A DNA stretch of 64,000 nucleotides. Origin: Escherichia coli O157:H7 (lineage in GTDB: Bacteria; Pseudomonadota; Gammaproteobacteria; Enterobacterales; Enterobacteriaceae). A program made the position numbers. The stretch's first letter is position 1. Every line of letters starts with the position of its first letter. The stretch lies in the NCBI RefSeq assembly GCF_013167455.1, contig NZ_CP038328.1. One strand, written 5' to 3'. Positions 15,001 to 18,000 of the stretch are shown here, piece by piece.

Positions 15001-18000
15001 GCATGATACTTAGTGTGATCGGCAACCAGCAGGATATTTCTCGCGTGCGCCATCATCGTTTTCACCACGTTAGCTTCGTTTACATCAAACTCCATCAACG
15101 CGCCATCGCTCTCAATCGCCCCAACGCTTGTTACCAGATAATCAGCACGAAAATCGGCCACAAAGGACGCCGCTGAAGGGCCAATGATCCCGCTATTATG
15201 AGAGCGCAACGTACCGCCGGGTACCATCACTTCAAAGCGCGGGTTGTGGTAAAGAATATGCGCCACACGCAGGCTGTTGGTGATTATCCGCAAATGATTA
15301 TGGTTAAGTAACGCCCGGGCAACATGCTCAACGGTCGTACCAATGGTGATAAATATTGTTGAACCATCAGGAATATAGTCTGCCACCGCTTCGGCAATCG
15401 CTTTTTTTTCCTCGGTTTGCGAAACCTCACGCTGCTCGAACGCCGTATTAACGACGCTGGAAGCCCGACCCGCGCCACCGTGATGGCGCGTAATCAGGCC
15501 TTGCTCGCTTAATTTACGAATATCCCGGCGCACCGTCTGCGTGGAGACATCCAGCAGATTTGCCAGCTCATCAATATTCATATACCCACGCTCGGCGATC
15601 AGCATGAGGAGTTGGTCGTGCCGCGGGTTACCGGTTAGTTCGGTAAGGCTCATGAAAATTCCTCGAAAAACCATCACCCTGGCATTTTATACAAAAAGTG
15701 ACAAAAAAGATCGGGTTTGATCACAGTCAGGGATCCCGGCTCGTCCACCGGGACGCGTGCATTTCGACGCCGCTACACCGCTGGCGAAGCGGACTGACTC
15801 CGCTAAATCCCCACCTGTTGCCAGCACCACCGCCAATGCGCCGTGAAAAACATCACCCGCACCTGTGGTATCTACCACATCAACTTTGAAGGCCGGTTGA
15901 TGTTGACGCCCGCCATTTTCCAGCCAGTCACAGCCTGCGCTGCCCTGGGTCACATAGACATGACCATTTGTGAGCGTTTGTGCCTGTTTTAGCGCACTGG
16001 CCATCTCTTTCACGCCCGTTAAGCGCGCCAGACCCGGTTCTGAAAAGGCCGCATGATCGCTTAATGCCACCAGCTCGCTGATATCCTGCGGCGTAATATC
16101 ACCGTCCAGAACGGTCATCACGCCCGCCTGCCGGGCCAGAGTGAAGGCTTTTTTAGCGCCGTCGTGCCAGCGTACATCTGCCAGCACAACATCCCACTGA
16201 GAGAAATCAATTTCCTCCAACCACTCTGCGTCAGGCAGCAGGTCCGGGCTGGGGTAGTTAATGATTATCCGCTCGCCTTTGGCATCCACCATGATGGCGG
16301 ATTGCGACGATTTCGCCTGTTTATACCGTTTGGTGTAGCGGGTGTTAACGCCCCAGGATTCCAGCTCTGCCAGCAGGCTGTTGCCGGTGTCGTCATCACC
16401 GACGCGCCCAATAAAATCAACCTGCGCTCCCAGTCTTGCCGCCGCAACCGCTGCCGTCGCCGCTGGCCCGCCACCAACTTCCGTATAATTTCTCGCCACG
16501 TATTTACCGCTCTCCGTCGGTAACCCTTCCACGTAATAGATGCGATCCATCACGGTTATACCTACACAAGCAACACGAATCATGGTCATTCCTTAAACAT
16601 TTTGGGATGCGTTCATTTTAATTTCACCAATTGTTTAAAAAGTGACGTCTGTCAATTTTTTGACTATAAATTACAAATACGATCAAAAACAGACAATCAA
16701 AGCGTGTCATAAATGACAAAAAGTGACATCACTGTATTCAGGAGAAGGTTATGGCAGCAATCGCGTTTATCGGTTTAGGACAAATGGGTTCGCCAATGGC
16801 GAGCAATTTATTGCAGCAAGGGCACCAACTTCGCGTCTTTGATGTGAATGCCGAGGCTGTGCGGCATCTGGTAGACAAAGGCGCGACTCCCGCCGCCAAC
16901 CCGGCGCAGGCCGCTAAAGATGCCGAATTTATCATTACCATGTTGCCGAATGGCGATCTGGTGCGCAGCGTGTTGTTCGGTGAAAACGGCGTTTGCGAAA
17001 GCTTATCTACCGATGCGCTGGTCATTGATATGTCGACCATCCATCCGCTGCAAACCGATAAATTGATTGCCGATATGCAAGCCAAAGGCTTCAACATGAT
17101 GGATGTTCCGGTAGGCCGTACTTCTGCAAATGCCATTACCGGTACTCTGTTACTGCTGGCTGGCGGCACCGCTGAACAAGTTGAACGTGCCACGCCGATC
17201 CTGATGGCGATGGGCAGTGAGTTGATCAACGCAGGCGGTCCGGGCATGGGGATCCGCGTTAAGCTCATCAACAACTATATGAGCATCGCGCTCAATGCGC
17301 TTTCGGCAGAAGCTGCCGTTTTGTGCGAAGCCCTGAATCTTCCCTTCGATGTTGCCGTCAAAGTGATGAGCGGTACCGCCGCCGGTAAAGGCCACTTCAC
17401 CACTTCCTGGCCGAACAAAGTCCTCAGCGGGGATCTTTCTCCCGCCTTCATGATCGATCTTGCCCATAAGGATCTTGGCATCGCCCTTGATGTCGCCAAC
17501 CAGCTGCATGTGCCAATGCCGCTGGGGGCCGCCTCACGGGAGGTTTATAGCCAGGCGCGCGCAGCGGGTCGCGGTCGCCAGGACTGGTCCGCCATTCTGG
17601 AACAGGTCCGTGTCAGTGCCGGGATGACTGCCAAAGTAAAAATGTAACGACTGGATAAAGGAATAAATGAATGAATAAGTACACCATCAACGACATTACG
17701 CGCGCATCGGGCGGTTTTGCCATGCTGGCGGTCGATCAGCGCGAAGCCATGCGCATGATGTTTGCCGCGGCTGGGGCACCCGCTCCGGTAGCCGATAGCG
17801 TTTTAACTGATTTCAAAGTTAACGCGGCGAAGACCCTCTCGCCTTATGCCTCGGCGATTCTGGTAGATCAACAATTCTGTTACCGCCAGGTGGTTGAGCA
17901 AAACGCGATTGCCAAAAGTTGCGCCATGATTGTCGCCGCCGATGAGTTCATTCCTGGCAACGGTATTCCGGTAGATAGCGTGGTCATTGACCGCAAAATC

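Follow-up and report, generated by a model that had tools for sequence, protein, structure and literature searches.

The repeated AAAAGTGAC words around the divergent yihV/yihU promoters and in the 3' end of yihV are real, conserved control signals of the sulfoquinovose (SQ)-degradation genes of Escherichia coli. On balance, we favor the view that they form cis-regulatory DNA of the sulfo-EMP cluster, in which units for the repressor CsqR are interleaved with an activator site for CRP. Two regions of the E. coli O157:H7 window (the whole stretch of 64,000 nucleotides analyzed) are under study: the control region between the divergent genes yihU and yihV, and the csqR promoter within the yihV 3' end. 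The genes concerned are:

14868–15653, minus strand: csqR (yihW), DeoR-family repressor gene (open reading frame and translation; RefSeq annotation of an identical O157-type record)
15687–16583, minus strand: yihV CDS, sulfofructose kinase (annotation), whose final ~13 codons double as csqR promoter and candidate operator
16751–17647, plus strand: yihU, sulfolactaldehyde reductase, first gene of yihUTS (open reading frame and annotation)

Because CsqR binding at both regions, autoregulation and derepression by SQ are prior published knowledge, there is little new in this part of the finding. The E. coli K-12 CsqR regulon concerns the same locus, regulator, two bound regions and effectors, with autoregulation and repression of the divergent units already described. 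Three papers (PMC8006165, PMC8249747 and PMC12608037, citing Shimada 2019) give two CsqR targets, the yihU/V spacer and the region upstream of csqR, and describe the repression of all three transcription units (yihUTS, yihV and csqR) and the release of CsqR by SQ, SQ-glycerol and sulforhamnose; the first-pass annotation, which had CsqR repressing the cluster through candidate sites that would give autoregulation and control of both divergent operons, agrees with them. In published accounts, CsqR binding to the spacer and to its own promoter in the absence of SQ is cooperative. The K-12 CsqR (YihW) regulon has been studied by gSELEX and EMSA (Shimada 2019), by comparative analysis together with CRP (Kaznadzey 2018), and by ChIP-exo (Gao 2021); both regions are published CsqR targets by gSELEX, EMSA and ChIP-exo. 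CRP, too, has been shown to bind these regions, with region-level EMSA for the spacer (PMC5816610). A literature search, which did not extend to Shimada 2019, found no base-level CsqR operator or consensus, and the YihW motif of Gao 2021 is an image. What is new here is the proposal that tandem TGACA units are the CsqR operators, and that a palindrome in the spacer belongs to CRP, with class II geometry at both promoters.

Local clustering of the repeated words

Exact copies of AAAAGTGAC are found on the plus strand at 15694–15702, 16638–16646 and 16719–16727, the three places named by the first-pass annotation, and are clustered far beyond chance. The intervals it gave agree to within 1 nt, with 16637–16653 and 16705–16733 each one base off. 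The first copy lies in the final codons of yihV, 41 nt upstream of the csqR ATG (15653), and the third is part of TGTCA-TAAA-TGACA-AAAAG-TGACA (16705–16728). The 9-mer occurs four times in the window against 0.65 expected, and at least four copies were reached in 0/100 shuffles. The fourth, within an exact AAAAAGTGACA at 58811 (9-mer at 58812), is inside an unrelated open reading frame and was dismissed as chance.

The yihU/V spacer is the sole 170-bp stretch in 64 kb with at least four TGACA/TGTCA words, and TGACA-N5-TGACA occurs once in the whole window (16714–16728). The longest exact word common to both regulatory regions, ACAAAAAGTGACA, has 13 nt, a length reached in 2/2000 dinucleotide shuffles. 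Four matches to AAAAAGTGACA with at most two mismatches are present in the spacer (at least four in 0/5000 shuffles), whereas such matches show no enrichment window-wide (25 vs 20.9 expected). The signal is local clustering of the copies, not window-wide abundance. TGACA pairs are absent from the other spacers of the cluster (yihS-R, R-tauE, tauE-Q, Q-P, P-O and O-ompL). One further candidate, AAAAAACGACA in the yihS-yihR spacer, was rejected as a CsqR box, being a hairpin arm that reads ACGGCATAT in other genera. Neither an Rfam match (E ≤ 1) nor a site resembling a terminator was found in the control regions, which makes an RNA element unlikely.

Tandem TGACA units in the yihU leader and the csqR promoter

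Both regions are conserved across 57 Enterobacterales clusters and in more distant ones, to an extent exceeding yihV codon positions 1 and 2; conservation of the motif was seen in the 57 orthologs and six more distant clusters. The elements discussed in this section are:

16613–16695, no strand: near-invariant core of the divergent control region, 83 bp, mean majority fraction 0.926 in 57 orthologs
16714–16728, plus strand: O_U, candidate CsqR operator, tandem TGACA-AAAAG-TGACA, at +25 to +39 of the main yihU promoter (TSS: PMC5816610); contains the third copy
16705–16709, no strand: TGTCA arm of the inverted repeat in the first-pass annotation; majority base in its columns never above 40/57
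16685–16695, plus strand: degenerate box AAAAACAGACA over the yihU TSS, two mismatches to AAAAAGTGACA, ~88–90% column conservation, within the ChIP-exo peak
15689–15703, no strand: O_W, candidate CsqR operator, ATACA-AAAAG-TGACA, at -23 to -9 of PcsqR (TSS: PMC5816610); contains the copy at 15694–15703
15686–15691, minus strand: csqR promoter -10 hexamer TATAAA, TSS ~15680, columns kept in 55–57 of 57 orthologs
15716–15731, no strand: CRP-like site TTTGA-N6-TCAGG upstream of PcsqR, 7/10 core matches, conserved in orthologs

The majority fraction of the core compares with 0.596 at yihV wobble positions, and between 16613 and 16687 the 57 orthologs have no indels. Conservation is so uniform over the 83 bp that the signals of promoter, CRP and CsqR cannot be told apart there by footprinting. 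The TGACA pentamers form conserved islands amid variable sequence in the same orthologs. At O_U, the tandem pair is exact in 40 orthologs, with one mismatch in 12 and two in 5; the pentamer columns are 0.82–1.0 conserved, and the flanks and the A-rich spacer between the pentamers are free to vary. O_U lies 39–41 nt from the core block in 52/56 orthologs while its distance to the ATG ranges from 10 to 29 nt, its position being fixed relative to the promoter block and not to the start codon.

A motif search of the orthologous yih clusters bore out the tandem pair, present with at most one mismatch in 52/57, and did not recover the TGTCA arm, which is found only in E. coli and E. whittamii. Because that arm is not conserved outside Escherichia, neither is the "TGACA palindrome" of the first-pass annotation, and we did not retain the inverted repeat as a conserved element; the arm is lineage-specific and probably non-functional. 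Just 21/57 orthologs have the G of GTGACA at 16723, and by column conservation the core of the motif is TGACA and not AAAAGTGAC. The claimed motif thus survives in its TGACA part and not as the longer unit, of which AAAAG appears to be an A-rich tail, or a flank ahead of each TGACA.

O_W shares a 13-nt exact word with O_U. Of all runs in yihV, the last 11 codons rank first in wobble-position conservation, with a majority fraction of 0.913 (0.596 for the gene as a whole), and the GACA of O_W is retained in 57/57 orthologs, synonymous sites included. The published csqR TSS at -27/-28 from the ATG (PMC5816610) maps 6 nt downstream of TATAAA. O_W falls within a fragment bound by CsqR in EMSA, the yihV/W fragment being bound more weakly (PMC12608037), and no separate YihW ChIP-exo peak is reported at PcsqR (PMC8464067). 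A conserved class II CRP site at -41.5 has been described for this promoter (PMC5816610); by our mapping, the center of the CRP-like site upstream of it is at ~-42.5 to -43.5.

Half-sites are thus repeated at helical spacing in both regions (TGACA-N5-TGACA at 16714–16728; ATACA-N5-TGACA at 15689–15703), and the pairs overlap the promoters, as do the degenerate boxes over the yihU TSS. Judged by these patterns, the TGACA copies at 15694–15703 and 16714–16728 behave like transcription-factor sites overlapping promoter elements, and O_U and O_W are the best CsqR operator candidates. TGACA-like tandem pairs also occur at other positions or in another orientation in the E. coli short cassette (L070), Edaphovirga (L073), Leminorella (L056), Dongshaea (L071) and L074, a turnover that is expected of operators and not of promoter hexamers.

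Phased A-tracts or curvature, combined with -35-like TTGACA pieces of multiple weak promoters and no dedicated factor, are an improbable source of these words. A-tracts do recur about every 10 bp, with a lag-10 signal, minor yihU TSSs are published at -15, -25 and -35 (PMC5816610), and TGTCAA at 16650–16655 reads TTGACA on the minus strand. However, it is TGACA that is invariant and the A-rich spacer of O_U that is variable, none of the TTGACA-like words has a -10 at the right spacing, and O_W keeps its GACA in every ortholog although it sits in a normally unconstrained promoter spacer. We give next to no credence to the idea that the repeats resemble a Pho box because PhoB, or a different response regulator of the OmpR family, binds them. 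Read on the opposite strand, O_U (TGTCACTTTTTGTCA) is similar to the Pho box, CTGTCATAWAWCTGTCAY, but its pentamers are 10 bp apart vs 11 bp, so that the alignment needs a gap, and two CTGTCAT repeats at 11-bp periodicity were not found. Moreover, the boxes accompany csqR in all clusters, its own promoter included, and PhoB is not, to our knowledge, reported to control the yih genes.

Divergent promoters and the palindrome between them

The spacer contains two divergent promoters with a palindrome between them:

16615–16620, minus strand: yihV promoter -10 hexamer TAAAAT, TSS 16608–16610, CATTTTAATTTCA nearly invariant, no -35 match
16678–16683, plus strand: main yihU promoter -10 hexamer TACGAT, TSS 16688/9
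16637–16660, no strand: palindrome AAAAAGTGAC-GTCT-GTCAATTTTT, 24 bp, center 16648.5, arms with TGAC/TGTCA boxes

Published TSSs are at -25/-27 for yihV and, for the main yihU promoter, at -62/-63 (PMC5816610). A promoter search of the control regions found no canonical -35/-10 pair, and the yihV and yihU promoters have no -35 hexamer. The TAnnnT pattern of the yihU -10 is present in every lineage (TATGAT, TATCAT, TACACT, TATGCT or TAAGAT). The left arm of the palindrome is the second copy of the repeated word (16637–46); in the 57 orthologs both arms are conserved around 3 central nt that are free to vary. Its center is 29.5 nt from the start of the yihU -10 (-41.5) and 28.5 nt from that of yihV (-40.5), and this geometry is indel-free in 57/57 orthologs. 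A center midway between the -10s of two promoters that lack a -35 suggests a class II CRP site shared between them, and the palindrome is probably just that, a predicted site common to yihV and yihU, possibly overlapped by CsqR. Its CRP core, AGTGA-N6-TCAAT, matches at 7/10 core and 14/22 total positions in E. coli, a 7/10 match being at chance level alone (193 found vs 215 expected); in the distant clusters L056, L073 and L074 the match is 8/10. AGTGA is universal, and the right arm shifts to TCACT in distant clusters. In class II promoters that depend on CRP, galP1 for example, CRP is centered at -41.5. The two-fold symmetric site at -41.5/-40.5 and the promoters without a -35 hexamer are alike in this respect; unlike galP1, a single predicted site would be shared by divergent promoters separated by 82 bp, with a core match of 7/10 and CRP binding known at region level.

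The first-pass annotation had taken all copies as candidate CsqR sites, a view that is supported for 15694–15703 and 16714–16728, with their phylogenetic footprints and promoter overlap, whereas 16637–16653 fits the CRP palindrome better (AGTGA...TCA at -41.5/-40.5). A reading in which every AAAAGTGAC copy is a CsqR half-site, with the palindrome as the main dimer operator and CRP bound at some other place, is unlikely. The same 9–11-mer is present at all three places, both arms contain TGAC/TGTCA, the G of GTCA is invariant where the CRP consensus prefers A, one ortholog (L049) reads TTGAC-CGAT-GTCAA, a poorer CRP match, and a repressor site at the -35 of PyihV would be classical. On the other hand, AGTGA is invariant in the palindrome and only (T)GACA in O_W and O_U, distant clusters drift to GTGAT...GTCAC, nearer the CRP consensus, the center is exactly at -41.5/-40.5, and the ChIP-exo peak excludes the palindrome. 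The arm orientation TGAC...GTCA is also opposite to that of the E. coli-specific TGTCA...TGACA. The E. coli DeoR and GlpR operators are palindromes, TGTTAGAA-TTCTAACA and TGTTCGAT-AACGAACA, and their arms too are oriented oppositely, which counts against such a dimer operator.

The converse, that the copies are CRP half-sites (AAAnGTGA) and the common word reflects CRP control of three promoters, is highly improbable. AAAAGTGA does resemble the AAATGTGA half of the CRP consensus, but the 15694 and 16719 copies lack a partner half-site at 6-nt spacing (right halves 1/5), and the yihU-proximal units are mostly AATGACA in orthologs, without the GTGA that CRP needs. In addition, the CRP site published for PcsqR lies ~20 nt upstream and has another sequence, and the direct repeat at 10-bp spacing lacks CRP symmetry.

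CsqR occupancy and a tentative tandem-array model

The in vivo contact of CsqR was placed on the window from published ChIP-exo data:

16664–16704, no strand: region matching the YihW/CsqR ChIP-exo peak, signal-to-noise 168 (PMC8464067 supplement; ~2 nt uncertainty)

The peak (4071641–4071681 in U00096.2, PMC8464067) was mapped via the yihV ATG at 4073739 in NC_000913.3, with an offset of 1977. It abuts O_U and the palindrome, covers neither, and has only degenerate boxes inside; the strongest in vivo contact is therefore not on the best TGACA copies, and lies between the two clusters of the first-pass annotation instead of on them. This placement is compatible with a CsqR array that assembles cooperatively across the entire core. 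At the minor YihW peaks (ssuE and glpA), TGACA-N5-TGACA was not found; the glpA peak sits on AAAAAACGAAC, which we take to be a GlpR-type half-site.

In the mechanism that we propose, CsqR would recognize TGACA-headed ~10-bp units with an A-rich tail after each TGACA. The clearest operators would be the tandem pairs: O_U lies in the leader of yihU, and O_W, within the end of yihV, covers the -10 and spacer of PcsqR. Weaker units (TGACT 16661, TTACA 16671, AGACA 16691, TGTCA 16650) would fill the invariant core. A CsqR oligomer might span ~16643–16733 and mask the -10, TSS and activator site of both divergent promoters. The palindrome at the 16637–46 copy would act as one CRP dimer site, a class II activator for the yihV and yihU promoters without -35, and repression would occur partly via competition with CRP and RNA polymerase.

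Lag 10 is the top self-similarity lag in 16655–16732 (z = 2.7; mean z 1.9 in 12 lineages, which have common ancestry), with decamer heads TGAC, TTAC, GATC and AGAC at 16661, 16671, 16681 and 16691; this supporting periodicity is weakly significant, and z is only 1.1 in the V/W region. Because the 10-bp periodicity is weak, and absent in the V/W region, we infer the array and put it forward tentatively: CsqR may bind head-to-tail to tandem TGACA ~10-bp units, nucleating at O_U and O_W and spreading over the 83-bp core, where one CRP dimer activates two divergent class II promoters, with the final yihV codons also carrying the operator and promoter of csqR, and with no palindromic operator of the DeoR/GlpR type.

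There are parallels within the DeoR family. As with DeoR and GlpR, the half-sites end in ACA (TAACA and GAACA; TGACA here), and multiple operators, cooperative oligomers and CRP interplay are involved; their operators are inverted repeats, whereas the conserved candidates for CsqR repeat in the same direction, and the DeoR-like inverted repeat at 16705–16718 is not conserved. FruR of Bacillota, also of the DeoR family, binds 4–8 tandem 10-bp units, TGAWWGWTTT, across the fru promoter (PMC11906611). The proposed likeness extends to a DeoR-type winged-helix regulator, multiple tandem ~10-bp units with a TGA start and an A/T-rich tail, their distribution from the -35 region to the leader, and cooperative binding. 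Unlike in FruR, the unit is TGACAAAAAG-like, each operator has just two well-conserved units, and the core array is drawn from weak periodicity statistics.

The repeats refine an already published regulatory circuit and leave that circuit unchanged. The gain consists of base-level candidate operator and activator sites for the best-studied SQ catabolic cluster, useful for the design of SQ-responsive reporters or biosensors. These sites could help to explain the lack of an SQ response in short-cassette strains such as Nissle, and could aid the reading of yih-cluster regulatory DNA in other Enterobacterales.

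Repeated words in two control regions of the sulfoquinovose cluster

Over 14800-17700 the sequence shows 100% identity to O157-type chromosomes of E. coli, whose annotation places yihT and the following genes there:

14868-15653, minus strand, csqR
15687-16583, minus strand, yihV
16751-17647, plus strand, yihU

On this annotation, the sulfoquinovose (sulfo-EMP) cluster carries the repeats in two control regions: the csqR promoter region (PcsqR), overlapping the 3' end of yihV, and the divergent yihV/yihU spacer of 167 bp. CsqR (YihW) is a DeoR-family repressor of yihUTS, yihV and csqR that binds the spacer and DNA upstream of csqR in gSELEX and EMSA, is released by sulfoquinovose (SQ), SQ-glycerol and sulforhamnose, and forms large cooperative complexes on a yihUV probe (PMC8006165, PMC8249747, PMC10991401, PMC12608037). 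Its complexes do not enter the gel (PMC8006165), and its EMSA binding is weaker at PcsqR (PMC12608037). CRP too binds both regions, in which transcription start sites were mapped by Kaznadzey et al. at -27/-28 (csqR), -25/-27 (yihV) and -62/-63 plus others (yihU) (PMC5816610). No CsqR operator consensus was found stated in the literature searched, the primary study (Shimada 2019) being outside its reach. Neither an Rfam match nor a terminator-like site was found in the control regions.

The three repeat copies proposed as CsqR sites in the first-pass annotation are present, with coordinates correct within one base: AAAAGTGAC matches exactly at 15694, 16638 and 16719 on the plus strand. The window contains four copies vs 0.65 expected, the fourth at 58812 within an unrelated ORF. 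A degenerate motif shows no window-wide enrichment (25 vs 20.9 expected); the signal is local clustering of the words. The spacer is the sole stretch in 64 kb with at least four TGACA/TGTCA words per 170 bp and holds four matches to AAAAAGTGACA with at most two mismatches (0 of 5000 shuffles reach four). A 13-nt exact word, ACAAAAAGTGACA, is common to both regulatory regions (a shared word at least that long arose in only 2 of 2000 dinucleotide shuffles), and the window's single TGACA-N5-TGACA is at 16714-16728.

This fourth copy, an exact AAAAAGTGACA (58811-58821, minus strand), has no companion boxes, lies inside a 443-aa ORF (58281-59612, minus) and is taken as a chance occurrence. The cluster's remaining spacers hold no further boxes, which fits the description of CsqR as a single-target regulator (PMC8249747). 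The yihS-yihR spacer (19814-19856) carries a 9-bp inverted repeat, AACGACATA...TATGTCGTT. Its conserved form in Salmonella, Citrobacter, Mangrovibacter and Superficieibacter is ACGGCATAT...ATATGCCGT with a T-rich run behind it; given these arms in other genera the repeat was rejected as a CsqR box, and it probably forms an RNA hairpin (attenuator, terminator or processing site). This O157-type strain has a gene of the TauE/SafE family (sulfite exporter type; 20836-21711) between yihR and yihQ, where K-12 MG1655 has only a 198-bp gap; the Dongshaea marina cluster also has a TauE gene (L071, 111-983).

Conservation among orthologous clusters

Footprints were computed from 57 orthologous yihU<>yihV-csqR clusters of Enterobacterales (CsqR identity 74-99%). 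In the core block of the spacer (16613-16695) the majority fraction averages 0.926, compared with 0.883, 0.910 and 0.596 at yihV codon positions 1, 2 and 3, and indels are absent over 16613-16687. Variation is confined to the three central palindrome bases (16647-16649) and to scattered single positions, and splitting this invariant core into separate signals by conservation alone is impossible.

Downstream of the core block variation is free, except in the pentamers TGACA 16714-18 and 16724-28, whose columns are conserved in 47-57 of 57 where aligned. Just 21 of the 57 orthologs retain the G of the second GTGACA, that of the 16719 copy; the TGTCA arm at 16705-09 is not conserved in the set, and the TGACA palindrome of the first-pass annotation is lineage-specific. 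Of the 57 orthologs, 40 carry the tandem pair TGACA-N5-TGACA exactly, 12 with one mismatch and 5 with two. Its offset from the core block is 39-41 nt in 52 of 56, and the yihU ATG follows it at anything between 10 and 29 nt, so the position of the pair is set by the promoter rather than by the ribosome-binding site. At the yihV 3' end ATACAAAAAGTGACA hardly varies, and all 57 keep GACA; no run of wobble positions in the gene scores higher than that of the last 11 codons (0.913), and these codons are under a second constraint.

More distant clusters comprised an E. coli short cassette (L070), Leminorella (L056), Edaphovirga (L073), L074, Dongshaea (L071, Aeromonadales) and a decayed cluster (L072). 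Each has the box at the yihV 3' end/csqR promoter in some form (TTAACA in L074) and TGACA-like tandem pairs. The pair lies in the yihV leader in L073 and L056 and is inverted (TGTCA-N5-TGTCA) in L070 and L073; such turnover of place and orientation is typical of operators and not of promoter hexamers.

In L072, a csqR homologue (~4295-5001, 70% identity) has a decayed yihV upstream, beside which the yihV 3'-end block with its TGACA box and TTGCTCACAATCAGG element is intact, so that promoter and operator have outlasted the overlapped gene. In the short cassette (EV36/Nissle type; L070, 5735-5775) the yihU-proximal pair is reversed (TTGTCA-TTAT-TTGTCA, then ATGTCAGACA) and the right arm of the palindrome is degraded to TCGTG; both changes may contribute to the absence of an SQ response published for short-cassette strains. 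L054, an 885-bp contig labelled Bacillus coahuilensis m4-4, encodes a CsqR fragment 100% protein-identical to that of E. coli (tblastn, residues 52-261) and is almost certainly E. coli contamination of the assembly.

The central palindrome and the ChIP-exo peak

The copy at 16638 belongs to a palindrome flanked by the two divergent promoters:

16637-16660, palindrome AAAAAGTGAC-GTCT-GTCAATTTTT, centre 16648.5
16678-83, yihU -10 hexamer TACGAT, TAnnnT in every lineage; published start site 16688/9
16620..16615, yihV -10 hexamer TAAAAT; start site 16608-10

The yihU -10 hexamer starts 29.5 nt from the palindrome centre and the yihV hexamer 28.5 nt from it on the opposite side, which sets the centre at -41.5 and -40.5, respectively; neither promoter has a -35 hexamer. 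As a CRP core the palindrome reads AGTGA-N6-TCAAT, a 7/10 match of a level common by chance (193 found vs 215 expected). AGTGA is universal, and the right arm is TCACT (8/10) in L056, L073 and L074. Conservation also differs by copy, GTGA being invariant in the palindrome and only (T)GACA at the other two. This copy, previously read as a CsqR site, is therefore more likely a CRP half-site, and the whole would form one CRP dimer site midway between two class II promoters rather than a CsqR dimer site. Overlapping CsqR boxes (TGAC 16643, TGTCA 16650) are possible. Elsewhere in the window, a perfect CRP-type core, TGTGATATTTGTCACA (0 mismatches), lies at 2194-2209 in the divergent fdhD/fdoG region, at the fdhD 5' end.

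Gao et al. list one dominant YihW ChIP-exo peak, 4071641-4071681, with a signal-to-noise of 168 and yihV as nearest gene, and no separate peak at PcsqR (PMC8464067 supplement). The coordinates are those of U00096.2, because under NC_000913.3 numbering they would land inside yihS. With yihV starting at 4073739 in NC_000913.3, the offset between versions, which from known version differences we take to be 1977, places Kaznadzey's promoter position 4071737 at -25. The spacer of K-12 aligns collinearly with that of the window, and the peak therefore maps to 16664-16704 (+/- ~2 nt), the stretch CTATAAATTACAAATACGATCAAAAACAGACAATCAAAGCG between the two repeat clusters of the spacer; the yihU-leader pair and the palindrome are both outside it. 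Of the minor YihW peaks, one (NC_000913.3 ~2352630; L076, 181-186) is on AAAAAACGAACTTC, presumably a GlpR-type half-site, just upstream of glpA, a hint of cross-binding within the DeoR family; another (~997548-997578; L075, 149-179) is on GGTCAGTCTGTCGG, upstream of the sulfonate-sulfur gene ssuE.

Candidate operators and a proposed CsqR array

The first-pass reading of the repeats is partly borne out: two of the three copies, with conserved TGACA, are good CsqR operator candidates. The recognition unit would be headed by TGACA and span ~10 bp. The operator in the yihV 3' end, O_W (15689-15703), covers -23 to -9 of PcsqR and would mediate autorepression, and that in the yihU leader, O_U (16714-16728), lies at +25 to +39 of the main yihU promoter, over minor start sites. 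Degenerate units (TGACT 16661, TTACA 16671, AGACA 16691) are located under the ChIP-exo peak, and a cooperative array could cover the -10 hexamer, start site and CRP site of both promoters. Such an array fits the data because the centre of the whole unit set (16643-16733) is close to that of the peak, and also fits complexes that do not enter the gel. A DeoR-family precedent for tandem ~10-bp units is FruR, with 4-8 TGAWWGWTTT units of 10 bp across its own promoter (PMC11906611). Lag 10 is the top self-similarity lag, with z = 2.7 in 16655-16732, a mean of 1.9 over 12 lineages that share ancestry, and only 1.1 in the yihV/csqR region, which is modest support for a 10-bp register of the units.

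That CsqR acts on both control regions is already known; what is new is a testable, base-level map of operators and activator site, proposed for both.
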